A stretch of DNA of 64,000 bases from an uncultured Phycisphaeraceae bacterium (GTDB taxonomy: Bacteria; Planctomycetota; Phycisphaerae; UBA1845), in the NCBI GenBank assembly GCA_964526695.1, contig CAZGJA010000042.1, forward strand, positions 21,145 to 85,144, written 5' to 3'. Each line of letters starts with the position of its first letter. Position 1 is the first letter of the stretch. A model generated the notes under the pieces. The model was given only the letters and a program-made list of their open reading frames with translations. It searched no databases and was not told the DNA's origin. Position numbers and translations under genes: made by a program. Positions 30,372-42,257 of this stretch are shown here, piece after piece.

Positions 30372-31771
30372 CTACGTGTCGTCTGGGGCGTTCGTGGGGC
30401 GTTTCTGAGGCGTTTGAGGCGTTTGTGAGGCGTTTAGCACGTAGTGCGTGGCCCGGCCGGTCCGACCCCGCCGGCGGAGCAGTTGGCGGGAGACGAGTTC
30501 GTCCAGGCAACGTGACGCCGTCTGCCGGGACACGCCGAGCAATTGCTGAACCTGCTGGTTGGTCACGCGCGGCTGTTGCTTGGCGAGCAGAACGACGCGA
30601 ACCCGGTCGTCGGTAAGCCCCATCGCGCGTAGTTGCTCGGGCGTGAACCGATCCTTGGCGAAGACGACCTGGAAGCCGCCCGATTCCTCGGCGAAGCGTG
30701 GTTCCGGGAGGCCCTGCTCGCGACACAGCTCGCGCATCCGCGTCGTGCCCGTGCCCCAGCCTAAATAAGCTCAGCAAAGAAGAACATGCGGGCCAGCAGC
30801 GGATTCCGCGGCTGAGAGGAGTGCCGCTCCTTCAACAGGTCTGCCAACGTAATTCCTTCGGGAAGGGGGCCGGGGTTCCAGAAATCGACGCGGTCTTCTT
30901 CGACGCGGATCTGGATGTCGCCCAAGGCCGTGTAATCCCGATGGATGAGTGCGTTGATCGTGGCCTCACGCAGGGCATCGAGCGGGTACTCCCAGGTCTC
31001 GCGGCGTTGAATACCCTCGACGGTCATTGCGGTGGACTTGACTTCGGAGCGCAGCGCGAGGTAGCTGCGGAAGGCCTCCAGCACGCCATCGAGCTGCTGC
31101 CAGAGGTTGCCGGTGATCAGCCGGTCGTCCAGCGTGACTCCGTTCTTGAAGTGACCGATGTGGACCTGACCCGACGTGGCGACATGCTCCGGGTGCTTTC
31201 CGAACAACATCACCGCGGCCTTCGTGACTACGCCGTCGCGAAGCAGCCGAAGGTTTGTGAGTGCCTCCCGTGGATCATCGCTTTCGCTGAGCTTGGGGAG
31301 GCGTTTGGCGGCCAAACGGACGAACCGGCGAAACGCGTCGAGGTCGAGCGAACTGAAAGGAAGATCGGTGGGCAGCGCGTCCCACGTTTCGCCCAGTTTC
31401 GACATGAGCCGACGGCCGACCTGGTCCGGCGTCATGTCGCGGTTCGTGCTGCCGACGCGGGTCAGGTACCGGCCGCGGTACGCGGTCGGGACAGTAGTCG
31501 GCTCGACGCATAAGCACAGGACGGGCTTGCGGCCACGCAGCTCGATGCGGATGGCTGGTCGCAGGCCGAGCGCTTGAACGACCTGGTTGGCAATGCGCTG
31601 CTGCTCGGCGTCGTTGCCCGACCAGCCTACGACCTGCGCGTCATCGTTGACTCCGACATGTACCGTGCCGCCCTTGTGGTTCGCGAAGGCGGCGAGCGTT
31701 TCCAGCGCGGAGTCAGTCCAGCGCTCCTTGAACTCGACCGTTTCGCCTTCCTTCGGTTTCAAGCGGGCCAT
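30372..31771 (-). pseudogene. Disrupted Schlafen/AlbA_2-RecG_C-wHTH ATP-binding protein
   Basis: EGETVEFKE..AFAN.KGG, EATINALIHRDY, RNPLLA; reads ATT TAG GC TGG GGC ACG (expected I-E-A-W-G-T-G): stop at 30761-63 plus 1-nt frameshift. Confidence 0.8.
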
Positions 31772-31894: not shown

Positions 31895-32362
31895 TCAAAT
31901 CCCGATCAGAACGGCCAGAATAGCGAACGCAAGGAAAACCATGTTCGCACCTGCGATGCGGCGAGGGGGAATGTCTCGCGCAATCAGCACACCGTTGATG
32001 ACCAGGAACGCGACTGCAACCAGGTGCCACACCTGCCAAGTTCCAAAAGGTGGAAGTGGCCGGCACAATGACGCCTCGAGACCCCACCAAGACATGTCAA
32101 TCGAGTCGAGGGCTGCGGCGGCGGACGAGGACGCAAAGTAAGACAGAAAGCCGAGCACGACGAACGCGATTCCGACAGCAGCGAGCGAAAGGCGTCGTCG
32201 AAGTAGGCCCCACAGCATACCGAACAGTCCGACGAGCAGGAGCCCGGAGCGCGCCAGCGCGATGTACTCCTGCTGGTTGGCGGCGGCGACCGCCAGCCAG
32301 AGCGCGATCGGCGCGACGAGAATGGCTGCGAGAAAGATGAGAACGCGGGTCACGTTGTTCAT
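31895..32362 (-). CDS. Multi-pass membrane protein
   Basis: About 5 hydrophobic segments; ATGA overlap with the AAA gene. Confidence 0.75.
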   Translation of the reverse strand: MNNVTRVLIFLAAILVAPIALWLAVAAANQQEYIALARSGLLLVGLFGMLWGLLRRRLSLAAVGIAFVVLGFLSYFASSSAAAALDSIDMSWWGLEASLCRPLPPFGTWQVWHLVAVAFLVINGVLIARDIPPRRIAGANMVFLAFAILAVLIGI

Positions 32363-33756
32363 TGGATCCCTCCCGGAGCGGTCGAGGGGTTCACCCCGGC
32401 GCGCGCGTTAGCATGGGGGAGTTCGATCGGGACGCAGGTGAGCGGCGGACCGGCACAAACGCGTACAGGGCTTCCGGATGCACCTGCCTCGACGAGGGCA
32501 TTACCGAGAATCGCATCGATGGCGTATTCGTACGGCCGGGCACCGAAGACCTGACTCCTGGTGTGCTCCAGGATGCGAACAATCACGGCCGGTTCGATGT
32601 ACGCAACGTTGACCCCGTACTCCTGGGCAACCGCATGAACGGCAGACGCTGCGATTTCAGTCAAGGCGTTGGTGGAGAGCGGCCTAAATACGAAGAAGCG
32701 GTTGATTCGCCCGACGAGTTCTGGCGCGATGCCAGCGGCCCGGACGTGGCTACGGCAAACCTCATCTGTACGGACACTGTCATCGAAGGACTCGGTTCGA
32801 GCAAGTTCAGCGACGATGCCGTCTGAGTCCAAGTTGGCTGTGAAGATGAAGATAGCGCGCCGGCAATCGACTTCGCGCGTGCCGGTCGCAGTGCGCGACG
32901 GACTGGAGAGTCGGCCGGCGTCCATCGCGTTCATCAGGGTCTGAAGGATGGTGGGATGCGCTTTCTCTATTTCATCGAAGAGGACGACGCGCCGGGGATT
33001 GACTGCGAGGTCGTCAACTAGTTGCGCGCCTTCGCCGTGGCCGACATATCCCTGCGGAGCCCCAAGGAGCTGACTCCGGCGATGGGACTCGCCGTATTCT
33101 GACATGTCCAACCGGGTATACGAGTAGCCGATTTTCCGGGGATCAAGAGTCTGAATGACCTTGGACACGAGCGCGGCCGTACGAGTCTTTCCGACGCCTG
33201 TTGGCCCTGCGAACCAGCACGTGCATGGCCGGCGCGGGTCGATGCGGGCGACGTGGCGGCATACCTGTTCGGCCAACGGGCGCAGCACGTGGTCCTGACC
33301 GAATACATGGCGGCGGAGCTCTTCCGCGAAGCGGCTGGAGTCGACATGCGGGGCACTGTGAGTTCCTGCCTGGACAGCCTGTAACTGTTGGATCGTCGAC
33401 AGATCCGTTAGCTGCGCGACTGCCGGCGCGGAGGAATCCGGTTGACCGGCGTCAGCCGGGTAGACAGGCGCAAGGTCCGAAACGATCCACTCACGCAGGG
33501 CATGGAAATGTGGAAAACGCTTCTCTCCTCTGCTCAACCATCGCCGCAACTCGCGGTTCTGTCCCGTGTAGCGCACGCCGGTCTGGACGTAAAGGATCGC
33601 CGCCCGCGATCCGGCGTCTACCTCGAACCCGACGTGCGCATGGGACGGCTGGCATCCTGGGGGCATGCACTGGTCTCGAAATCGAATACAATGCGCAGAA
33701 GCCCTCCGCTCCAGTTGAGCCCACGCGTCGTCGCTGCCGTGGATGAATTGGTGCAT
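32359..33756 (-). CDS. ClpB/ClpA D2-type single-ring AAA+ ATPase with unknown N-domain
   Basis: GPTGVGKT, LDMSEY, pore loop GYVG, VVLFDEIEKAHP, PELVGRI, GARP; GAGGAG RBS. Confidence 0.92.
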   Translation of the reverse strand: MHQFIHGSDDAWAQLERRASAHCIRFRDQCMPPGCQPSHAHVGFEVDAGSRAAILYVQTGVRYTGQNRELRRWLSRGEKRFPHFHALREWIVSDLAPVYPADAGQPDSSAPAVAQLTDLSTIQQLQAVQAGTHSAPHVDSSRFAEELRRHVFGQDHVLRPLAEQVCRHVARIDPRRPCTCWFAGPTGVGKTRTAALVSKVIQTLDPRKIGYSYTRLDMSEYGESHRRSQLLGAPQGYVGHGEGAQLVDDLAVNPRRVVLFDEIEKAHPTILQTLMNAMDAGRLSSPSRTATGTREVDCRRAIFIFTANLDSDGIVAELARTESFDDSVRTDEVCRSHVRAAGIAPELVGRINRFFVFRPLSTNALTEIAASAVHAVAQEYGVNVAYIEPAVIVRILEHTRSQVFGARPYEYAIDAILGNALVEAGASGSPVRVCAGPPLTCVPIELPHANARAGVNPSTAPGGIQ

Positions 33757-33770
33757 GTCAAACTCCTCAA

Positions 33771-35471
33771 TCAGGGCCTGGGCGAGGGACGCATCAGACG
33801 CGTATCTGCAAACGTGCCAGCAGCATTACGAAGGTCACCAGTACCAGAGCAGTCCGGGCACACCGGCCGGGTAGGTGATTGCCCAGCATCCGGCGCCTGT
33901 GCCAGGAACAGAGTATCCAGCATGACGAAGCTGCCTGCGTCGGCGGCGCCCGCGATCCGCCTTCCAAATGTGTTGCCGAATGTAACGTCGAAGTTCGGAT
34001 CCATTCTGATACGCAACAGGTTGCGTGAACCGAGCATGGTCACCATGTTTCCCCAGCGTGGGTGGTCCGTGCTGTGGTGCGTGACGGCAAGCAGAACATG
34101 GCCGAGAATCGCGTTGAGCATTTCCGCGGCGAAGATGGGTGCGCCAGTTGAGCTTACCGTGTTGCGATAACCGTTCTCGTACGCCGCGTAGCGCGACGAT
34201 GTGATGCAGCGATGGCACGCAGGTGACACGCCCGGGATCGTGTACGTGACTTCCGCTCCGCGCCCTTCTACGTACTCTTGGGCACAGATGGTCGGCAGCC
34301 CGAAGTGCAGACCCAGCCGGTGCCCACGGGCGTTTGCCTCGAAGTTGTCAGTCAGGACCAGTAGAATCCACAATCGCGGAAGGCTTACCGCCCCCGTCGA
34401 CTCCGCCCGCATTGGCTGGCGGAGTAGGACTTCAAACGTCTCGTCGTCAATTGCTTCGATAGGTTCGGAGACAGCCAGCGCTGCCGATGCGGGATTGAGA
34501 CGTACCACATCCGCGGCCAGCGCCTCCGCCTTGGGCTTCCCGATAGCTTCGGGTTCGGCCTGCTGAGAAAAGATGTTGGCCGCAGTAACTTCGTCGGGAT
34601 CGACGAGCACTACCTCGCCATACCCCATCCGTGCGCAGTTGCGAACGAGCGAGGCTGCGCCGCCCACCCCGATCACGATGAGCCGGGTGGCGTCCAAGAG
34701 CTCCAGGTCGCAAGCAGAACCGAGCCGAGTAAGGTACTGGTCCCTCTTGGCCACGGCGTTGGCCTGGGCGGCGATCTCGTCGGTGGTAGCGGGCTGCGTA
34801 GTCACGCATTTCGGCCCAGCGCTGAGTCGCGCCCCGGGTTCCAGGGAGGCGAAGTTCCCATAGTACTTATGGCGAAGCGTCGGACGCAGTTCTCCGGGGC
34901 TTTCTTTGAGGCGTGGGAGAGTTGGAGCGGGGCTCTTCATCTCGGACGCCACGATAATGGGCTGCCGTGCGGACCCATCCGGCCCGCCATCGACAACGCG
35001 CAGCCGTCCTTTGACGATGTTGCAGCGTGAGCGATCCGTCGGGCTTGGGACCGCTGCGTACGTCAGGACCTGGAAGGCGCCGCTGTCGACCGTCGTCATA
35101 ACGATCGGGAGCCACAGCAGCTCAAGTTTCTTGAAGCACCTGAGTATCTGACCGGCATACCACTCGTCGTATCCCGACGGGCGCCGGACGCCGGCCGGAT
35201 GGCTATGCGCAAAGCCGCAGAACTCGATCCCGCTGACCTTCCATTCCTTGATGACGCGATTGAGCGACCCAATGTCCGGATCATACGCGGCGGCGCTGCA
35301 CCGGCCGTTCTTATCCGCCTCGAAGCTGCAAATGTAGCCATCCGGTCCGCGTCCGAGCATGCCGCCACGTTCTGCGCGGTGCTGGCCGATGAAGGCGCGG
35401 ATCTGTCCGAGCACGTTTTTTGACATCCGTAGGGTTGGGGCCGTTGTCGCATTGTTCTGATTTGTCACCAC
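33771..35471 (-). CDS. JAB/MPN+ isopeptidase fused to ThiF/E1-like adenylation domain
   Basis: ERGGMLG plus exact JAMM H-x-H-x7-S-x2-D (HSHPAGVRRPSGYD); VIGVGG, VDPDEV, GKPKA, TDN, Zn motifs CHRC and CPDC; AGGAGG RBS, GTG start. Confidence 0.9.
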   Translation of the reverse strand: MVTNQNNATTAPTLRMSKNVLGQIRAFIGQHRAERGGMLGRGPDGYICSFEADKNGRCSAAAYDPDIGSLNRVIKEWKVSGIEFCGFAHSHPAGVRRPSGYDEWYAGQILRCFKKLELLWLPIVMTTVDSGAFQVLTYAAVPSPTDRSRCNIVKGRLRVVDGGPDGSARQPIIVASEMKSPAPTLPRLKESPGELRPTLRHKYYGNFASLEPGARLSAGPKCVTTQPATTDEIAAQANAVAKRDQYLTRLGSACDLELLDATRLIVIGVGGAASLVRNCARMGYGEVVLVDPDEVTAANIFSQQAEPEAIGKPKAEALAADVVRLNPASAALAVSEPIEAIDDETFEVLLRQPMRAESTGAVSLPRLWILLVLTDNFEANARGHRLGLHFGLPTICAQEYVEGRGAEVTYTIPGVSPACHRCITSSRYAAYENGYRNTVSSTGAPIFAAEMLNAILGHVLLAVTHHSTDHPRWGNMVTMLGSRNLLRIRMDPNFDVTFGNTFGRRIAGAADAGSFVMLDTLFLAQAPDAGQSPTRPVCPDCSGTGDLRNAAGTFADTRLMRPSPRP

Positions 35472-35483
35472 AATCCTCCTCGG

Positions 35484-35786
35484 CTACCAAGAGCCGGTCT
35501 TGATGTACTTGACGGTATGCCGGGACCACGACTCCGCGATGGTTCGAGCCTCTCGCAGGGTTCTGGGCGGCGGTTCGTAGCAGATATGCGGTCTGCCAAA
35601 ACACCCCAGCCCGTATCGATGCGTGGAGTGGCCATCCGTCGCTCGGCCGGCCGGATATGAAGGCTGTTTATCGATGTATATCCGGATCGTTCCGTCGGTC
35701 TGCTCCACGAGCGAGAAGTGGAACGACGTGGTCGGGCTCGCGTACACGTCGTACCAAAAGCTGTCGATCTTCCTCCGATCTGCCAT
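35484..35786 (-). CDS. E2/UBC-like protein (divergent)
   Basis: Beta-rich FHFSLVEQTDGTIRIYIDKQPSYP, then STHR...GRPHIC and an LxEAxxIAxxW helix, resembling the E2 P-x-x-P/H...IC layout; AGGAGG RBS. Confidence 0.6.
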   Translation of the reverse strand: MADRRKIDSFWYDVYASPTTSFHFSLVEQTDGTIRIYIDKQPSYPAGRATDGHSTHRYGLGCFGRPHICYEPPPRTLREARTIAESWSRHTVKYIKTGSW

Positions 35787-35813
35787 GGTCATCCTCCTGT
35801 TCCGATGAGAGGC

Positions 35814-35863: not shown

Positions 35864-36016
35864 CTAGCGGAAGCCGCCTGGCGGCAGCTCCTCATCGCCC
35901 CGGAATCCACCGGCCGGGAGTTCCTCGTCCCCGCGGAATCCGCCGGGCGGGAGCTCCTCGTCCCCACGGAACCCTCCGACGGGGAGCGATGCTTCGAAAT
36001 CGTAGATCGCCTTCAC
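35864..36016 (-). CDS. 50-aa tandem-repeat peptide MKAIYDFEASLPVGGFR(GDEELP[P/A]GGFR)x3
   Basis: Hand-translated, absent from the ORF track; GGAGGT RBS plus GTG; 33-bp repeats differ mainly at synonymous sites. Confidence 0.85.
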   Translation of the reverse strand: MKAIYDFEASLPVGGFRGDEELPPGGFRGDEELPAGGFRGDEELPPGGFR

Positions 36017-36163: not shown

Positions 36164-37729
36164 GTGGCGCGTTGTAAAGCACGGCTGCGGGCTATGGACA
36201 ACATCTCAGGCTCCCCTAGAATAATGGGCATGAGCAGCACCAAGAGGGCGCGGAGCGTCGACAGCGGCAGGACGAAACGCCTGCAGAGTGGCGTTTCAGA
36301 ACCCGCCGCCGAACGTCGAGCCGGCGAGCGACCGCAGGGGAGACCTGCCCCCCCCCAGGAAGTCCCGCCCCAGAAGCCAAGCATGCCCAATGGAGGGGAA
36401 AGAGAGGAAGGGCAAGCTCTGGACGGCGGTCATCGGGGGCGACCAAGGCGGGATTCACCGGATCGTGAATCCTGGAAGAAGCTTCTCGCTACGCTTCTAA
36501 AGCAGGCCGACAACCCGCCCAGAAGCAAGGATCTTGCGGACACCGTGAAGAAATACCTAGGGAAACGCCGAGACAACCGAACGGTTTCGTCTGCGCTGAT
36601 CGACAAATGGAGATCCGTGGGTCCAAGCAATCCTCAAGCGCCGACGGATTCGGTGATGGCGAATGCGCTTCTCGACGCACTCGAGGAAAGGCTCGTTATC
36701 CGGCCGCGAAAGCCTGGGAATCAGCCTGACAAGCTATACGACGGGCTAGTGGACGAACTGCCCGGCCAAGAGTGGGACCCCGAATCCATTCGATGCAGGC
36801 TAATACAATGGTTATTCAAAGATGCAGTGCGCGATTCGGATCCCGAAGCGAAGCTCTATCGGTTTTCCTACCTTGCGGCACATGAGCTGTTCGAGGAACT
36901 CTGGCAGTATGTGTCCCCGGATGCGACGTGGGACGATTCCGATACGGCGTTTGTGGGGGCCTGCCTAATGTCGAATCGCAAACAGAGCGAAGACGTCTGG
37001 CAACTGATCGAAACAAGCAGCGGAACGTTCCAAGTACGCGAAGAAAGCGACTGTAGCATCGTTCATGTCCGGCATATCGTGATGTTCCTCTATTGGGACG
37101 GCCGTGACCGTGAGGAGGCCCAAGAGGCTTGCAAGAAACTAAAGGATGAAATCCAAGCTAAGAAATCAATGGAATTCATCACGGATCGTGCAAATGAGGG
37201 TTTGGCCACGCACGTTGTCCTCGGTGTATATCGGGGCAACGACCGCGAGAATGGACAAGAGTGTATGCGGGAGTTGCAGGATATTGCAAGGGGACTTTTT
37301 GAGGCTTGCAATAGCAATGGTCGAAAGCACTGCTTCGTCTGGCGGAAGGATTTGGAGAACGAAGCTGCAGCGCCGTACCCCATGAGCGATTTCTGGCTTC
37401 TCCTCTTTCCCGACGGCGACAGCAAGCTATGGAGGTCGATGCGGCACCCGGAACAGTTCAAGCGCATTCGGTACAGTCGAGCTACCCGCCTCTGCGCGCC
37501 TATCGGCGGATATGAGAAGCAAGCTGTTTGCTCGTGGATGGGCATTAAGGGGAGCAAGAGCGTGGCCACAGGGGATTACCTATGGCGAGTGTTGCCGGGT
37601 GCGCGCATATCGATGGATCGTTCATCTGGCACGGAACACGCCGACGCTCGTCAGGCAATAACTTCCACTCGGTCAAGTGCCTCCGTCGGACGCCCGTCGA
37701 AAGCTAAGGGGCGCGGTAAGCATGTGTGA
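36164..37729 (+). CDS. Divergent putative regulator (XRE-like HTH plus large unknown C-terminal region); start uncertain
   Basis: Long ORF; VSSALIDKWRSVGPSNPQAP resembles an XRE recognition helix; stop overlaps the ABC ATPase start. Confidence 0.55.
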   Translation: MARCKARLRAMDNISGSPRIMGMSSTKRARSVDSGRTKRLQSGVSEPAAERRAGERPQGRPAPPQEVPPQKPSMPNGGEREEGQALDGGHRGRPRRDSPDRESWKKLLATLLKQADNPPRSKDLADTVKKYLGKRRDNRTVSSALIDKWRSVGPSNPQAPTDSVMANALLDALEERLVIRPRKPGNQPDKLYDGLVDELPGQEWDPESIRCRLIQWLFKDAVRDSDPEAKLYRFSYLAAHELFEELWQYVSPDATWDDSDTAFVGACLMSNRKQSEDVWQLIETSSGTFQVREESDCSIVHVRHIVMFLYWDGRDREEAQEACKKLKDEIQAKKSMEFITDRANEGLATHVVLGVYRGNDRENGQECMRELQDIARGLFEACNSNGRKHCFVWRKDLENEAAAPYPMSDFWLLLFPDGDSKLWRSMRHPEQFKRIRYSRATRLCAPIGGYEKQAVCSWMGIKGSKSVATGDYLWRVLPGARISMDRSSGTEHADARQAITSTRSSASVGRPSKAKGRGKHV

Positions 37730-38564
37730 TGCGCTGTGCGTGGATAAACTGTCCGTCGAATATGCCACTCCAGTGGTGCCCTTACGAGCCCTGTCGGAGG
37801 TAACGTTTGCTGTGCCTCCGGGGCCTGCAGGTTCCTCGGTTTGCTGTTTGGGAGCATCGGGTGCCGGCAAAAGCACGCTCGGGCTCGCTGTTATCCAACT
37901 TCTGCCGCATGAAGCACGAGTCAAAGGCAAGGTATCCTTGCCAGGAGGCCTGACGCTCACCGCGAGCGGTGGTCGGCTGCGGGAATACCGGCGGCGCAGC
38001 GTCGGCGTCGTGCTCCAGGATGCGCCAGGTTCTTTGGTTCCCGGCGTTCCAATTGGACGGCAGGCTCGGCGCGTTTTCGCCGTGAGGCGGGGTCTTGCCC
38101 GAAGAGATGCCGAGCGAAGCGCGCGGGAAGGGCTGGCCCGGGTGGGCCTCGAAGACGTTGAGCGCGTTTGGCGGGCGATGCCATCGGAGCTCTCGGGCGG
38201 CATGTGTCAACGGGTGATGATAAGCCTTTCAGTATTGGCTGCTCCTGAGCCTCGGCTCATGATATGTGACGAGCCCACGAGTGCCCTCGATAGCGTGTCG
38301 GCTGCGCAGGTGCTTGAGTTGCTTTTTCGCATCAAGGCTGAACACCGAATCACGATGTTGTTCATTACGCACGATGTCCGTCTGGTTTGGCGCTTTGATT
38401 GGGTGGCGATTCTCTCAGAAGGCCGGCTCGCGGAGTTTGAAAGGAGTGACCAGTTCTTAGCAAGCCCGCGGAGCGAGGAAGGACGTCGGCTGCTCGATGC
38501 TGGTAAGGCCCTCGGTAGCAGTTCGGTCGATCGTGTAAATGCTCAACAGGAGATAATGCGGTGA
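37722..38564 (+). CDS. Dpp/Opp-type ABC ATPase
   Basis: GASGAGKS, LSGGMCQRV, MICDEPTSALD, FITHD. Confidence 0.93.
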   Translation: MCDALCVDKLSVEYATPVVPLRALSEVTFAVPPGPAGSSVCCLGASGAGKSTLGLAVIQLLPHEARVKGKVSLPGGLTLTASGGRLREYRRRSVGVVLQDAPGSLVPGVPIGRQARRVFAVRRGLARRDAERSAREGLARVGLEDVERVWRAMPSELSGGMCQRVMISLSVLAAPEPRLMICDEPTSALDSVSAAQVLELLFRIKAEHRITMLFITHDVRLVWRFDWVAILSEGRLAEFERSDQFLASPRSEEGRRLLDAGKALGSSSVDRVNAQQEIMR

Positions 38565-39658
38565 ACTTAATGGCTGGGTCTTTGGGAGGGGCGATACCGA
38601 CACTCCGGACGGACGGCCCTTCCGTGATATCCATTTGCGTCAATGCAGTGTGCCCCTTGAAGTGTCGGCATTGCTATTTGGCCGGGGGCGAACCCGCGAT
38701 CGGTGTCGGGGCCGCGCAGTGGCTTCGATTCTTGCGGTCCGTCTTCATCGATCTGCGGCCCCACTCCTTGTGTTTTAGCGGAAAAGAGGTCTTCGCCCTC
38801 GATGAGAGTGCGTCGCTCTTCTTCGACGCACTGCGCCTCCGGGACGAGGAGCAAGCCGGTAGCGTTCAGCGAACACGTATCGGCGTCATCACGAATGGGA
38901 CCCTGCTCGATCGGTACCGCGATCAGCTCGTTGAGTGCCCGCCGGATTGGCTCGACGTGAGCATCGACGGGTTGGAAGGCGCACACGATGAAGTGCGCGG
39001 GAAGGGCTCCTTCGCCCGCGTTGCCCGAAACCTGCCGTGGCTCGTCGAGTCGTTCGGCGCTCGGCTCTGGGTCGCAGTGACATTGATGGAGAGTAACGTC
39101 GAGACGCTCCGGGAGTTCATTTCAGGCCTCCACCACACGTCCGGTCTAAACCGGTTCACCGTGGGAATCTACAAGCCGCAGAGTTACACGGATTCAACGC
39201 TGCGGCTTGCGGAGCCCAGCCGGGAGGGACGGATTCTGCGCTCAGTCTACGCCCTCGAACAGATACAGGACGCGGATGGCGTTGTAGTGCGCATCGAACT
39301 CGACGTCGGCGATGCTGGCCTTCGATTGAGACTCCAAGACTCGGGCATGATCCCCACCGTTGGGGCGATCCGCGTCGCGGAACATTCCCTGAAGAATGGA
39401 CTAACGCTCCAACTCGCGGCCGCGACAACCCCCGTGGGACTTTGGCGAGCTGTTCGCGTGACGAACGAAGGTCTTTATCTGGCAGCAGAGGATCTCGTCG
39501 ATGTGACCGCATATCGAGAGCGCGCCATCGGGAATATCGCGGAGTTCGAGTACGACGCGAAGCGAGTCTACGAGGCCGGACTCGTGCATCCGCGCTTCCG
39601 CGAACTGGTCGGGACAGAGGCGCCTGAATTCCTGGCGCGGCTTGCCCGGTCGGCATAG
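38561..39658 (+). CDS. Radical SAM enzyme
   Basis: CPLKCRHC (CxxxCxxC), FSGKE, ITNGTLL, VSIDG..HD.VRG; C-terminal SPASM-like region without Cys. Confidence 0.9.
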   Translation: MNLMAGSLGGAIPTLRTDGPSVISICVNAVCPLKCRHCYLAGGEPAIGVGAAQWLRFLRSVFIDLRPHSLCFSGKEVFALDESASLFFDALRLRDEEQAGSVQRTRIGVITNGTLLDRYRDQLVECPPDWLDVSIDGLEGAHDEVRGKGSFARVARNLPWLVESFGARLWVAVTLMESNVETLREFISGLHHTSGLNRFTVGIYKPQSYTDSTLRLAEPSREGRILRSVYALEQIQDADGVVVRIELDVGDAGLRLRLQDSGMIPTVGAIRVAEHSLKNGLTLQLAAATTPVGLWRAVRVTNEGLYLAAEDLVDVTAYRERAIGNIAEFEYDAKRVYEAGLVHPRFRELVGTEAPEFLARLARSA

Positions 39659-39681
39659 GGGCGGTCCCTGGAGCTACCCAA

Positions 39682-41292
39682 ATGAGGCGAACAACCATCA
39701 CGATCGCGGCTGTGTTTGGAGCCCTCGGGCTCGCGGCACTTATGTTCTGGGCATACCGTGGTCAGGAGCCTACACACGTTCGCGCGGTGACAATTCCGCT
39801 GGAAGGCGACATCCAGACGCTGGACCCAGCCGCGCTTTCCGATCCGACGACAAGCCGCGTTGTTTGGCAGATATATGAAGGGCTCGTTGGGCTCGACGCG
39901 GAAAACAACGCGGTGCCGATGATTGCGGAGTCATGGGATGCTCGCGACGACTCACGCACGTGGGTATTCAGGATTCGGCAAGGTGTCTTGTTTCATCCGC
40001 ACGCAGCCTTTTCCGGGGAATCGCATAGACGAGCGGTCCGTGCTGACGATGTCGTCTGGTCGATCGAGAGAATGGCGCGTGGTTTTGGATCGTTCGTGTT
40101 TGGCGGTCTTGTCGAAGGCTTCGACGTGTACGTCAAGGGCGAAGGAAAGAGCATTACCGGTTTACGAGCCACGGGCGAGCACGAGGTCACGTTCATTCTC
40201 AATCGGCCCGACCCGTCTTTCTTGTACCGTATCACCAGCCCCTACCTGTCCGTCATGCCGCGCGAGGTGGTCGAAGGAGACGCGGATGCGTTTGGAAGGA
40301 CGGTAGCAATCGGAACGGGAGCATTTCGGTTGGTTCGGGCCGGGAGCGGTGAATTGGTTTTGGAACGATACGCAGAATACTGGGGCAGGCGAAGCGGCAA
40401 CATCGATAGCGTGACGTTCCGAGTTGAGAAGAATCCGCAGTTCCGAATGGCTGGCTTGCGATCCGGCACGTACGACCTAGTTCGTATGCCGACGGAGCTG
40501 CGCGGAGAGTTTCTTCTTCGAGACGGCAGCTTCAAACCCGAGTCTGCTGCTAGATTCCAAACGTTCGAATCGTCAACATTCAACGTGCATCTGCTGGCCG
40601 TAGATGCCAAACAGGTAACTGATGCCGCGTTGCGGCGGGCCATATCTCTGGCGGTTGACCGTGACGTTATCGTCACCGAAGTGCTGAGTGGCGGCGCTGT
40701 GCCGGCCAACGGGCCAGTTCCGCCAGGAATGCAGGGTTATCGCTCGCCGCTCCGGGTCGCTAGAGACCGAGAGGCGGCTCGACGCGAGGTCGCGGCCAGC
40801 TCCTATGCGGGGCAGGAGCTGACGCTGTTGGTGGCCAGCGTTCACAATCACCCTGACATTGTGCAGGTTGTACAAGACGAACTACTCCAGTGTGGCATCA
40901 AGACGCGCATCGAGCAGGTCGAGTTCAACGCATTCGTTAGCCGACTATTCGGCACTAATCGGCCGGCACTATTTTTGACTTATAGCGAATGGATTTATTC
41001 GGCGCCGGAGCTATTGATGGAACAGTTTCGGTCCACGGCTACGCCGAATCCGAACGTATTCGGTTATGCGGACGACCGTGTTGACGCTCTAATCGCTCAA
41101 CTTGGCGCGACCACGGAGCGGTCTGAACTGAATCGGCTGTGCGCTGATATCGAAAGGATTGTGGCAGAAGCACCACCGGCCGCATGGCTCTACCACGAGC
41201 GGCATATGTTCCTGGCAGCTAAACGACTCTCACACTTCGCTGTGACGGGCAACAATCATTGGCTCCTTTCGGAGCTGCGGAGTGAGCCGTAA
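39682..41292 (+). CDS. Family-5 peptide/nickel ABC substrate-binding protein
   Basis: N-terminal anchor, TLDPA, IYEGLV, GTGAFRL, LRRAISLAVDR. Confidence 0.93.
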   Translation: MRRTTITIAAVFGALGLAALMFWAYRGQEPTHVRAVTIPLEGDIQTLDPAALSDPTTSRVVWQIYEGLVGLDAENNAVPMIAESWDARDDSRTWVFRIRQGVLFHPHAAFSGESHRRAVRADDVVWSIERMARGFGSFVFGGLVEGFDVYVKGEGKSITGLRATGEHEVTFILNRPDPSFLYRITSPYLSVMPREVVEGDADAFGRTVAIGTGAFRLVRAGSGELVLERYAEYWGRRSGNIDSVTFRVEKNPQFRMAGLRSGTYDLVRMPTELRGEFLLRDGSFKPESAARFQTFESSTFNVHLLAVDAKQVTDAALRRAISLAVDRDVIVTEVLSGGAVPANGPVPPGMQGYRSPLRVARDREAARREVAASSYAGQELTLLVASVHNHPDIVQVVQDELLQCGIKTRIEQVEFNAFVSRLFGTNRPALFLTYSEWIYSAPELLMEQFRSTATPNPNVFGYADDRVDALIAQLGATTERSELNRLCADIERIVAEAPPAAWLYHERHMFLAAKRLSHFAVTGNNHWLLSELRSEP

Positions 41293-42257
41293 TGTCGAGA
41301 GGCTCGTTGGCCTATCGCGGTAGCCGTCACATCGGCGGTTGGAGCATCGCCTCTGTGCTACGAGTCGTGGCAACGGGCATAGGGCTGTTTCTATTCGTAT
41401 CGACGGTCGCATTCATTGTATTCTCTGTCTTGCCGACTGATCCGGTGCGCAATGCACTTGGAATGAACGCTAGCGAGGAGGCGGTTCAGTCGCTTCGCCA
41501 GCAGCTTGGATACGATCGGCCGATGGCCAAGCGATACGTGCGCTTCCTGGTTGGCTCGCTCCAGTTGGATTTCGGCCGCTCGATCCATTCTCGCCGTCCA
41601 GTGGGCGCAATGATTGTCGAAGGGTTAGCAACGACAGGTCGCAATGGAGCTATTGGGCTGTGTCTCGCTGCGTTCTTGAGTTTGATGTTGGTCGTCGTTG
41701 CGTGGTCGTGGAGGAGGATTGAACACGCTTTGGTTCTCTTGTGTCGGTTGCTAACGAGCATCCCTAGCCTCATTCTGGCGGTCACGGCCGGCGTTGTGGC
41801 CTATAGCATGCTTGGCGGCTTCGGAACAGGTGGTTATCGCGAGGTCGTCGGCGTTGTTACTGCCTTGGCGGTGTACCCGACTTGCTCACTGGCAGAGATT
41901 GCGATCGGTGAATCCCGGAGGGCGGAGCGGTGTAGCTTTGTAACGGCCGCGCGCAGCTTCGGCATGAGCGAACGGGCGGTGTTCGCTCGGTGCGTTCTTC
42001 CTGCCATACTGACTAGCTGGGCAGGGCACGTGTCCAATCTGGCAGCGTCGATTTTCGTTTCCTCCGCGGTCGTCGATGCGGTTTTCTCTTTACCGGGAAT
42101 TGGTCATTTACTCGTTCAGGCAGTTATCCATAACGATCTTCCGGTCGTGCAGGGGGTGATCGTCGTCGTAATCGCGGGCTTCCTAGGCGTTGATCTCTTG
42201 TTCGATCGTTTAGTCCTGCCGCGGTTGGCCGTGCATGTGGGGAGTACCCGATCGTGA
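41292..42257 (+). CDS. DppB-like ABC permease
   Basis: PTDPV, LGYDRP, DFGRS, TAARSFGMSE, VFSLPGIG. Confidence 0.92.
   Translation: MSRGSLAYRGSRHIGGWSIASVLRVVATGIGLFLFVSTVAFIVFSVLPTDPVRNALGMNASEEAVQSLRQQLGYDRPMAKRYVRFLVGSLQLDFGRSIHSRRPVGAMIVEGLATTGRNGAIGLCLAAFLSLMLVVVAWSWRRIEHALVLLCRLLTSIPSLILAVTAGVVAYSMLGGFGTGGYREVVGVVTALAVYPTCSLAEIAIGESRRAERCSFVTAARSFGMSERAVFARCVLPAILTSWAGHVSNLAASIFVSSAVVDAVFSLPGIGHLLVQAVIHNDLPVVQGVIVVVIAGFLGVDLLFDRLVLPRLAVHVGSTRS

Follow-up and report, generated by a model that had tools for sequence, protein, structure and literature searches.

A single-ring ClpB-NBD2-type ATPase as the fixed fourth gene of a bacterial operon with a repeat peptide, an E2-like protein and a JAB-E1 fusion

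Does a Clp-type ATPase encoded directly behind E1, E2 and JAB genes belong with them, and if so, what could it do there? The question is raised by a locus of an uncultured Phycisphaeraceae bacterium, for which we analysed a window of 64,000 nucleotides (contig CAZGJA010000042.1 of assembly GCA_964526695.1). Bacterial operons of E1, E2 and JAB genes, such as CBASS type II, Bil and Bub, are an active field. To our knowledge, no characterised operon of this kind always includes an unfoldase, and we know of none in which the folded Ubl is swapped for a short repeat peptide. The features of the locus are listed below in the order of transcription, each with the evidence used to assign it.

35864..36016, minus strand: repeat peptide gene of 50 codons, a leader and three 11-residue FRGDEELP(P/A)GG units (six-frame search, ORF list)
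35484..35792, minus strand: E2-like protein, p102, 102 aa (AF2 model, fold match, invariant columns)
33771..35471, minus strand: JAB peptidase-E1 (ThiF) fusion, 566 aa, directly upstream of the ATPase (Pfam, PADLOC)
32359..33756, minus strand: single-ring AAA+ ATPase of ClpB-NBD2 type, 465 aa (Pfam AAA_2, PDB profile match, homologues)
33457..33756, minus strand: family-specific N-terminal alpha/beta domain of the ATPase, aa 1-100 (AF2 model, family conservation)
32473..33324, minus strand: AAA+ large and small domains of the ATPase, aa 145-428 (alignment to 1qvr 552-826, invariant columns)
31895..32362, minus strand: membrane protein, 155 aa, five hydrophobic segments, TM family A (ATGA overlap, hydropathy)

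An earlier sequence-only reading of this DNA held that the ATPase retains just the second AAA+ module of a ClpB-like protein with its GYVG pore loop intact, and the domain analysis bears this out. A Pfam scan of the whole protein returned one AAA_2 domain (residues 180-352) and neither a second AAA+ module, a Clp_N domain nor an M-domain, and residues 1-179 are without any Pfam match. When the family profile was compared with the PDB, residues 145-428 matched NBD2 and the small domain of Thermus thermophilus ClpB (1qvr 552-826) at E 2.8e-58; this was the sole significant stretch of the alignment, the NBD1 stretch scoring 1.7 bits. The match extends through the D2-small domain, which is complete, as is the NBD2 catalytic set: Walker A (184-191), the pore loop (236-239, nt 33040-33051), Walker B (257-264), sensor-1 (N308), the Arg-finger (R350) and sensor-2 (R407, inside FGARP at 404-408). 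Ten residues of these motifs (G184, K190, G236, Y237, G239, D261, E262, N308, R350 and R407) do not vary among 28 homologues. Homologues of full length number more than 100, at about 50% identity, and the labels ClpA or ClpB that they carry in the databases are routine mis-annotation.

The ATPase thus aligns end to end with NBD2 of ClpB/Hsp104 and shares its catalytic motifs and pore loop, whereas NBD1, the M-domain and Clp_N are missing, and whereas ClpB/Hsp104 is a stress chaperone, the present gene is part of an E1/E2/JAB operon. Neither ClpB NBD2 nor the ATPase has a ClpP-docking loop: the [LIV]-G-[FL] tripeptide that is conserved after sensor-1 in ClpA, ClpC and ClpX is absent from the ATPase family as judged from inspecting the alignment by eye only, the stretch after FTSN being of ClpB length and its tripeptide variable (SFD in the window, AFG or GFG elsewhere). 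Human CLPB/Skd3, which is among the PDB matches to the profile, is likewise a one-ring NBD2-type protein with an unrelated N-terminal domain; the ATPase differs from it in having a private alpha/beta N-domain and no ankyrin repeats, which Pfam did not find in the 465 residues.

The genes upstream, all on the minus strand, follow the order peptide, E2-like protein, JAB-E1, ATPase, and the same order is repeated in loci L087, L091, L094, L096, L148, L149 and others. The fusion consists of Prok-JAB (31-109) and ThiF (256-458) domains by Pfam and matches the E1-E2 and JAB models of PADLOC. Its stop codon lies 14 nt before the ATPase ATG, which is preceded by GAGGAG. The 102-aa protein has an E2-like fold: its AlphaFold2 model (pLDDT 86, pTM 0.80) gave as best match the CBASS E2 8hsb_B (Z 7.5, rmsd 3.1, 93 aligned residues), followed by a next row at 4.8 and by BubB (4.7), Cap2 (4.5) and listed UFC1, UBC, UEV and RWD structures; H55, H58, R59 and C71 are invariant. 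The motor thus stands beside a candidate tag as well as an E1, an E2 and a peptidase. Repeat peptides homologous to that of the window are found upstream in many related loci. Neither a protease nor any other downstream sink for an unfolded substrate is encoded in the module.

Linkage across genomes shows how constant this arrangement is. A search with the full-length ATPase alignment had used AAA-core patterns and gave only ordinary ClpB and ClpC genes; a family-specific DNA pattern (MNAMDAGRLS) yielded 22 loci from genomes and 40 from metagenomes, 50 of them distinct. These counts are a sample, since members of the family whose residues differ at this position escape the pattern. The upstream DNA was testable in 39 of the 50 distinct loci, and in 38 of these the gene immediately upstream, in the same orientation, encodes an E1; where at least 1700 nt were available, 23 of 29 loci have the full JAB-E1 fusion. 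The E2-like gene and the GG repeat peptide accompany E1 in related loci. The sequence-only reading, which tied the ATPase to the JAB-E1/E2 genes, had named as refutation that the ATPase and TM genes occur mostly without them; what was found is the opposite, and it supports the view that the ATPase belongs functionally with these genes. Linkage is kept even in a split variant (L104) where JAB, E1 and the E2-like protein are separate genes. In another locus (L152) the N-domain and a membrane protein of TM family B are kept and the AAA core is lost, which may be decay, or the N-domain may act alone. Related loci span about nine phyla, and among 400 other genomes of the phylum the N-domain was matched once, weakly. 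The neighbours of the module differ between loci and show no relation to one another, so the four genes move together as a unit. The ATPase is therefore the fixed fourth gene of a conserved bacterial operon, which apparently has been undescribed so far; our literature search found no paper describing the module.

The membrane gene behaves differently. Translational coupling of the ATPase to a protein of about five transmembrane segments, as first read from the sequence, is upheld: the start codon of the 155-aa ORF shares bases with the TGA of the ATPase gene (CCAATGAAC; ATGA), GGGAGGG stands 6-7 nt upstream, and there are five Kyte-Doolittle peaks of 1.75-2.86 near residues 16, 45, 67, 119 and 145. 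The protein is without Pfam or PADLOC match, and its ORF is a real gene because homologues (31-33% identity) are found at the equivalent place in two loci of Bythopirellula. In a set of 5.8 billion proteins TM family A comprises only 8 clusters, each of which agrees with the ATPase subclade of the window and Bythopirellula, and it follows a single ATPase clade (support 99) in a quick tree of which our argument uses only the starred branches. A small ORF with at least two TM segments that starts between -30 and +135 nt from the ATPase stop was found in 17 of 44 loci, often overlapping that stop (-4, -8, +1), and these ORFs fall into at least four unrelated families. Other loci carry a membrane-anchored paralogue of the E2-like protein, or no membrane gene, the latter being about half of all loci. 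Family B, which is not homologous to family A (probability 0.17%), has 68 clusters, and a genome scan centred on it gave six loci, all six inside the module. Because family A is limited to one subclade and others carry non-homologous TM proteins or none, the small membrane protein is a lineage-specific, swappable accessory and a core role is ruled out; with about half of the loci lacking it, the membrane link is not essential. Such behaviour fits an effector, a target or an anchor, the first and last of which had been suggested from the sequence, while the status of a defined partner is weakened by the confinement of family A to one subclade.

The N-terminal region, which the first reading could not assign, still matches no Pfam family and no PDB fold convincingly, yet residues 1-100 fold with confidence into a small alpha/beta domain in the AlphaFold2 model (pLDDT 86, pTM 0.76). 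They are conserved family-wide, with P32, P37, V57, W73 and W90 invariant; a variable linker comes next, and after it a conserved LTD motif (116-118). Foldseek gave no convincing match (best E 0.16), the ESM Atlas fold search no usable one, and the best VIA-align row (YkuJ, Z 4.6) is within the stated noise of the tool. E2/UEV-like rows at Z 3.0-3.3 are at the same noise level, so a UEV-like reading is no more than a thought; the small alpha/beta fold of the model is not that of a Clp_N repeat. Homology to the 102-aa E2-like protein is not detectable (hhalign probability 0.45%), and the N-region of the split variant compares with the N-domain at a probability of 0.17% from a single sequence, although the aligned segments are positionally equivalent. 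Sequence searches returned 191 clusters, and in nearly all of the best 150 the domain begins at the N-terminus, in proteins of at most 528 aa. Short proteins with the N-domain only are among the matches, and they may be fragments from contig ends or genes like that of L152. The N-domain is thus private to this family of ATPases, which is what one would expect if it were an adaptor specific to the pathway, and is a new domain family that belongs to no known Pfam family or fold.

Taken with the gene linkage, we favour with moderate confidence a reading in which a self-contained module has the ATPase as its fourth indispensable part, a substrate-threading unfoldase with its N-domain as adaptor, and the membrane protein is interchangeable. 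The module would comprise the GG repeat peptide, the minimal E2-like protein, the JAB-E1 fusion and the ATPase. The latter would most likely form a threading hexamer of ClpB-NBD2 type, and its private N-domain would most likely bring the motor to a product or substrate of the conjugation enzymes, candidate targets being a peptide-tagged substrate, an E2~peptide intermediate, or the E1 and E2 proteins themselves. In roughly half of the lineages the membrane protein would most likely be a partner located at the membrane, as target, anchor or effector.

A more specific version, which we regard as rather unlikely, makes the N-domain a receptor for the 11-residue GG tag that replaces the beta-grasp Ubl, giving a minimal pathway of tagging, ligation, de-tagging and unfolding that membrane proteins direct to membrane targets. 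The clade-specific membrane proteins, and the membrane-anchored E2 of one clade, might then lead to extraction of tagged proteins or to a suicide output. Prediction of a complex between the N-domain and the 50-aa repeat peptide, run without controls, scored 0.02 against a mark of 0.32, a score that tells in neither direction on binding. About equally doubtful in our judgement is that the ATPase serves the enzymes, as a remodeller or recycler that strips or resets E1-E2-peptide complexes or feeds precursor or conjugates to the JAB site. Precedents are the Rpt ring, which is coupled to Rpn11 in the proteasome lid, and Trip13, which resets HORMA proteins in type III CBASS. The ATPase gene always comes immediately after that of JAB-E1, the N-domain is conserved with the enzymes across all clades, and neither a protease partner nor a ClpP loop is present, all of which agree with a remodeller; however, a precursor of 50 residues, probably disordered, should need no unfoldase, and gene order alone cannot separate a remodeller from a tag-reader.

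Two further explanations were weighed. In the window the module adjoins an ABC set of peptide type in which a radical SAM enzyme is embedded, as also in L122, and the repeat precursor resembles multi-core precursors of RiPPs. The module might make a modified RiPP-like peptide: E1 would adenylate the C-terminus, as MccB and PaaA do for modification or cyclisation, JAB would release the cores, and the ATPase and membrane protein would take part in export, immunity or handling; small polytopic membrane proteins are typical partners for immunity or export. We consider this improbable. ClpB-type ATPases have, as far as we know, no role as RiPP exporters, the membrane gene is missing from about half of the loci, and the E2-like fold with its invariant Cys points to transfer chemistry. 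The radical SAM query was moreover negative in four of five other host genomes, with one match on a different contig; ABC/radical-SAM linkage as a general feature was rejected, being seen elsewhere only in L122.

Just as improbable to us is that the ATPase and membrane protein are the toxic output of an abortive-infection-type defence, in which the unfoldase, switched on by the conjugation enzymes, would harm the cell by way of the membrane protein or jointly with it. The swappable small TM proteins do recall the TM effectors of CBASS and Pycsar, which also vary, and defence or mobile genes adjoin some loci (SIR2, AbiEii, GmrSD, integrases, NACHT), a ParA and a Schlafen/AlbA_2 gene being near the module in the window. 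PADLOC also matched the ATPase to DolB of Dodola (E 1.7e-16) and to PDC-M37B, both of them single AAA+ proteins that resemble ClpB and belong to candidate defence systems. These matches, in the range of E 1e-16 to 1e-17, are far weaker than that to ClpB and cover the generic AAA core only (residues 124-314), and DolA (DUF6414) had no match in five scanned neighbours. Against such an output stand the loci without a TM gene, mixed neighbourhoods that include housekeeping genes, the absence of matches in plasmid, phage and IMG/VR collections, and the published relatives, the Bub operons, for which phage protection is not yet demonstrated (PMC11601596). Because the neighbouring genes are heterogeneous, the likeness to defence systems remains an analogy.

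How does such a module compare with known systems? In Pup-Mpa/ARC and ubiquitin-Cdc48/proteasome, an AAA+ unfoldase recognises the tag through its N-domain. The logic would be alike here, with a small, probably disordered tag whose C-terminal end is reactive, one enzyme for ligation and a peptidase for de-tagging, and an AAA+ ring with a dedicated N-domain, whose recognition of the tag is putative. The parts differ: Mpa and Cdc48 are classic AAA proteins, whereas the present ATPase is of the Clp NBD2 clade; the Mpa N-domain is a coiled-coil/OB structure, a fold different from that of our N-domain; the Pup ligase is PafA, whereas ligation here would use E1/E2 chemistry; and in contrast to the Pup and ubiquitin systems, no proteasome or other protease is encoded. 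The type I Bub operons (6E.1), consisting of BubAB, BubCD and BubE, share with the module a JAB peptidase N-terminal to the E1 adenylation domain (BubCD), an adjoining E2-type protein and a sporadic, mobile-looking distribution (Ye et al., 2024, PMC11601596). In Bub, a beta-grasp Ubl is fused to E2, BubE is a DUF6527 serine protease and an AAA+ ATPase is not present (PMC11601596), whereas the module has a separate E2-like gene, no beta-grasp Ubl, the repeat peptide as its only tag candidate, and a fixed AAA+ ATPase. DUF6527 (PF20137) is absent from the operon proteins and from the whole genome (98.6% complete; control genomes matched). FtsH ternary vWA-MoxR conflict systems, described computationally, carry a full Ubl-conjugation set and likewise join JAB, E1 and E2 genes to AAA+ ATPases (Kaur et al., 2020, PMC7159879). 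Their MoxR and FtsH ATPases, RING-type E3, Ubl-E2 beta-grasp fusion and caspase-like effectors are all lacking in the module.

A ClpB-NBD2-type motor with a private, putative adaptor domain, locked to E1, E2 and JAB genes in about nine phyla, suggests that bacteria couple tagging to mechanical remodelling outside the Pup system as well. The operon offers a compact four-gene set in which the coupling of a tag-ligation pathway to an AAA+ motor can be studied, and it defines new families, one of N-terminal domains and several of small membrane proteins. If the N-domain is indeed a tag receptor, the module would represent a third independent invention of the logic of ubiquitin-Cdc48 and Pup-Mpa.

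In the window, the ATPase lies in an operon of five co-oriented genes, all on the minus strand:

35864-36016, minus strand, repeat-peptide gene, an ORF of 50 codons
35484-35792, minus strand, putative E2-like protein gene, 102 aa, no domain in the Pfam scan
33771-35471, minus strand, JAB-E1 fusion, 566 aa, Pfam Prok-JAB and ThiF
32359-33756, minus strand, ATPase, 465 aa, a single Pfam AAA_2 domain at residues 180-352
31895-32362, minus strand, hydrophobic protein (TM family A), 155 aa, no domain in the Pfam scan

The ATPase start follows the JAB-E1 stop by 14 nt and is preceded by GAGGAG, and the ATG of the 155-aa gene overlaps the ATPase TGA (ATGA) with GGGAGGG upstream. Together with five hydropathy peaks in the 155-aa protein, this bears out the sequence-only reading that the ATPase is coupled to a gene for a protein of about five TM segments.

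Using a profile of 28 homologues, ATPase residues 145-428 were aligned to NBD2 and the D2-small domain of T. thermophilus ClpB (1qvr 552-826, E 2.8e-58), followed in the match list by ClpC, Hsp104 and human CLPB/Skd3. With the single AAA_2 domain in Pfam, this agrees with the earlier claim of only one AAA+ module, of NBD2 type. The GYVG pore loop is intact as proposed, with G236, Y237 and G239 invariant among the 28 homologues, as are G184 and K190 of Walker A, D261 and E262 of Walker B, N308 of sensor-1, R350 within PE(I/L)xGRI, the counterpart of the ClpB arginine-finger stretch, and R407 of the FGARP sensor-2 motif. The stretch past sensor-1 is of ClpB length and the conserved [LIV]-G-[FL] tripeptide was not seen there, thus no ClpP-docking loop is apparent. 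Because of the one module, the invariant motifs and the missing loop, the ATPase looks like an active one-ring Clp/Hsp100 that would thread substrates independently of a protease; hexamer formation and threading are expected from its family. PADLOC matched it to DolB and PDC-M37B over the generic AAA core only.

Residues 1-100 are conserved family-wide (P32, P37, V57, W73 and W90 invariant) and are followed by a variable linker and a conserved LTD motif. An AlphaFold2 model of this N-domain from an 18-sequence alignment (pLDDT 86, pTM 0.76) has the order helix-helix-strand-strand-strand-helix-strand-helix. The domain, which could not be assigned from sequence, found no convincing solved fold either by Foldseek (best E 0.16) or by an all-against-representatives structural search (top Z 4.6, YkuJ, lower than what the tool itself counts as noise). 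HMMER, run in full against 1.84 billion cluster representatives, gave 191 clusters; among the best 150 of these the domain is N-terminal in nearly all, the longest protein has 528 aa and no other architecture occurs, so the N-domain is private to this ATPase family, as expected for a pathway-specific adaptor. That it reads the GG tag itself, the FRGDEELP(P/A)GG unit of the repeat peptide, seems rather unlikely to us. In a Victivallales MAG (L152, 5380-6381) the module is intact through JAB-E1, the AAA core is deleted and a 194-aa ORF holds N-domain, linker and LTD motif only, with a TM family B gene 37 nt downstream. Either the gene has decayed or the N-domain stands alone here, and many short N-domain proteins among the clusters could resemble it instead of being contig-end fragments.

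Our first locus search returned ordinary ClpB genes only and was replaced by the family-specific coding pattern MNAMDAGRLS. This matched 22 loci among genomes representing species and 40 contigs from metagenomes, or 50 distinct loci once identical copies were set aside. The genome loci span Planctomycetota, Verrucomicrobiota, Kiritimatiellota, Lentisphaerota, Pseudomonadota, Acidobacteriota, Thermodesulfobacteriota, Myxococcota and Chloroflexota. Where at least 1700 nt lie upstream, the full JAB-E1 fusion is immediately 5' of the ATPase on the same strand in 23 of 29 loci, and five more match in the E1 part only, four of them with stand-alone E1 genes (L098, L104, L130, L138). All ten loci with 300-1700 nt upstream hold the E1 3' part at the contig edge, and for L092, which ended at the ATPase, the added flank shows the fusion next to it on the upstream side. 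In total, E1 is linked to the ATPase in 38 of 39 testable loci, so that the ATPase occurs with the JAB-E1/E2 genes to which it had been assigned, and not mostly apart from them; the 102-aa gene and repeat peptide are usually present as well. The sole exception among the 29 is L113 (3662-6651), where the ATPase is 5'-truncated, begins near Walker A and adjoins a toxin-antitoxin pair of the opposite strand (AbiEi/AbiEii); an insertion seems to have disrupted this module.

A split variant, L104 (1372-6400), has the order repeat peptide, two E2-like genes (both with HNPW...CLG), JAB gene (HSHP...SxxD), E1, ATPase and TM protein; since the separate genes keep their linkage, the ATPase goes with the pathway as a whole, beyond any single fused gene. 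Alternatively, the motor may be a remodeller of the pathway enzymes, which we consider improbable. The split form, also present in L098, L130/L119 and L138, has a 48-nt tandem repeat ORF, separate JAB gene, stand-alone E1 and an ATPase with divergent N-region; wherever downstream sequence exists, the ATPase stop is overlapped or immediately followed by a small TM gene.

The 102-aa protein has invariant H55, H58, R59 and C71, and its predicted fold (pLDDT 86, pTM 0.80) matched best the E2 of E2-CBASS (8hsb_B, rmsd 3.1 Å, 93/102 residues aligned) at Z 7.5, borderline on the tool's scale and well above the next row at 4.8. Lower rows include BubB (4.7), the Cap2 E2 domain (4.5), UFC1, UBC13/Mms2, E2S, Tsg101 UEV and RWD domains. 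Because of these repeated E2-superfamily rows and the invariant Cys, an E2-like fold is the best reading of the model, and the motor would then adjoin a candidate tag, E2, E1 and peptidase; that the module is a RiPP-like peptide pathway is a very unlikely alternative. The JAB-E1 fusion is also a feature of type I Bub operons, but these carry a Ubl fused to the E2 together with BubE, a DUF6527 protease, and lack an ATPase (PMC11601596); a search of this genome for DUF6527 gave no match. The sets in which Ubl conjugation goes together with MoxR and FtsH ATPases (Kaur et al., 2020; PMC7159879) differ in architecture, Iyer et al. (2006) make no mention of an AAA+ partner, and full-text literature searches found no such module.

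In the 155-aa protein, loops rich in Arg (54-57, 129-135) and an acidic one (78-108) suggest that the N-terminus is inside and the C-terminus outside, with very little of the surface facing the cytoplasm. TM family A comprises 8 clusters among 5.8 billion proteins; members follow the ATPase with the same ATGA overlap in both Bythopirellula copies, and one more is suggested to share a contig with the closest ATPase homologue, P0002 (longest contigs both 10,455 nt). ATPases with family A form a single clade in a quick tree (support 99). Elsewhere the next gene encodes a 126-aa protein of TM family B (68 clusters; 6/6 loci inside the module in a genome scan centred on it; retained in L104), families C or D, singleton small multi-TM proteins, or soluble or unrelated proteins (NACHT, GTPase, LRV repeats); families A and B are not homologous (hhalign probability 0.17%). 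In one Kiritimatiellota/Lentisphaerota clade (L084, L093, L114, L124, L125) the E2-like gene comes after the ATPase and is duplicated, one copy with a hydrophobic N-terminal helix (MIELIVVG...) read as a TM segment, and more small multi-TM genes lie beyond; this is a second, independent membrane link of the module. In a Verrucomicrobiota-type clade (L087, L122, L147) a conserved soluble protein of ~196 aa (MQPTELGSETGEMVLPERHIESLDDIPREIAEKR...) replaces the membrane gene and overlaps the ATPase stop by 19-23 nt.

A small ORF with at least two TM segments begins -30 to +135 nt from the ATPase stop, frequently with overlap, in 17 of the 44 distinct loci that extend at least 230 nt downstream; adding L086 and the five membrane-anchored E2 loci places a membrane protein beside the motor in roughly half of loci. 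The proposed partnership of membrane protein and ATPase therefore stands in part: the gene is recurrent and tightly coupled where present, yet not homologous from one clade to the next, and dispensable, which marks it as an interchangeable accessory and not a core partner. A toxic output formed by ATPase and TM protein is, in our estimate, a long shot.

Near the module in the window are a ParA gene, a Schlafen/AlbA_2 gene and a divergent ABC/radical-SAM set. The Schlafen/AlbA_2 + HATPase_c_4 gene (336 aa) and, directly after it in another frame, a 121-aa winged-helix ORF (30372-31771, minus strand), 123 nt downstream of the membrane gene, look like two parts of a single gene interrupted by a stop or frameshift. 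Head-to-head with the module (36164-42257, plus strand) is an ABC set of peptide type, made up of ATPase, family-5 binding protein and permease, in which a radical SAM enzyme is embedded; such a set also lies downstream of the module in a metagenome contig (L122:8366-13821), and the radical SAM query had no match in 4/5 other host genomes. The Bythopirellula polymerisocia isolate genome holds two diverged whole-module copies on two contigs (L095, L101), each with its own family A gene, 88% identical, and identical modules in MAGs binned as Myxococcales and Rickettsiales (L097, L102) reflect either recent transfer or mis-binning. A scan of 92 neighbouring ORFs found no family in common; a few belong to mobile elements or defence (two integrases, SIR2, AbiEii, GmrSD, Replic_Relax), and some others are housekeeping genes. 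Plasmid, phage and IMG/VR collections gave no match, and the N-domain was found in just one of 400 other genomes of the phylum, as a weak match.

The best-supported reading, held with moderate confidence, is that the private N-domain would recruit a ClpB-NBD2-type unfoldase to products or components of the peptide/E2/JAB-E1 pathway, with clade-specific membrane proteins as its optional partners. The module has the behaviour of a self-contained cassette that moves horizontally, and a defence role is plausible for it.
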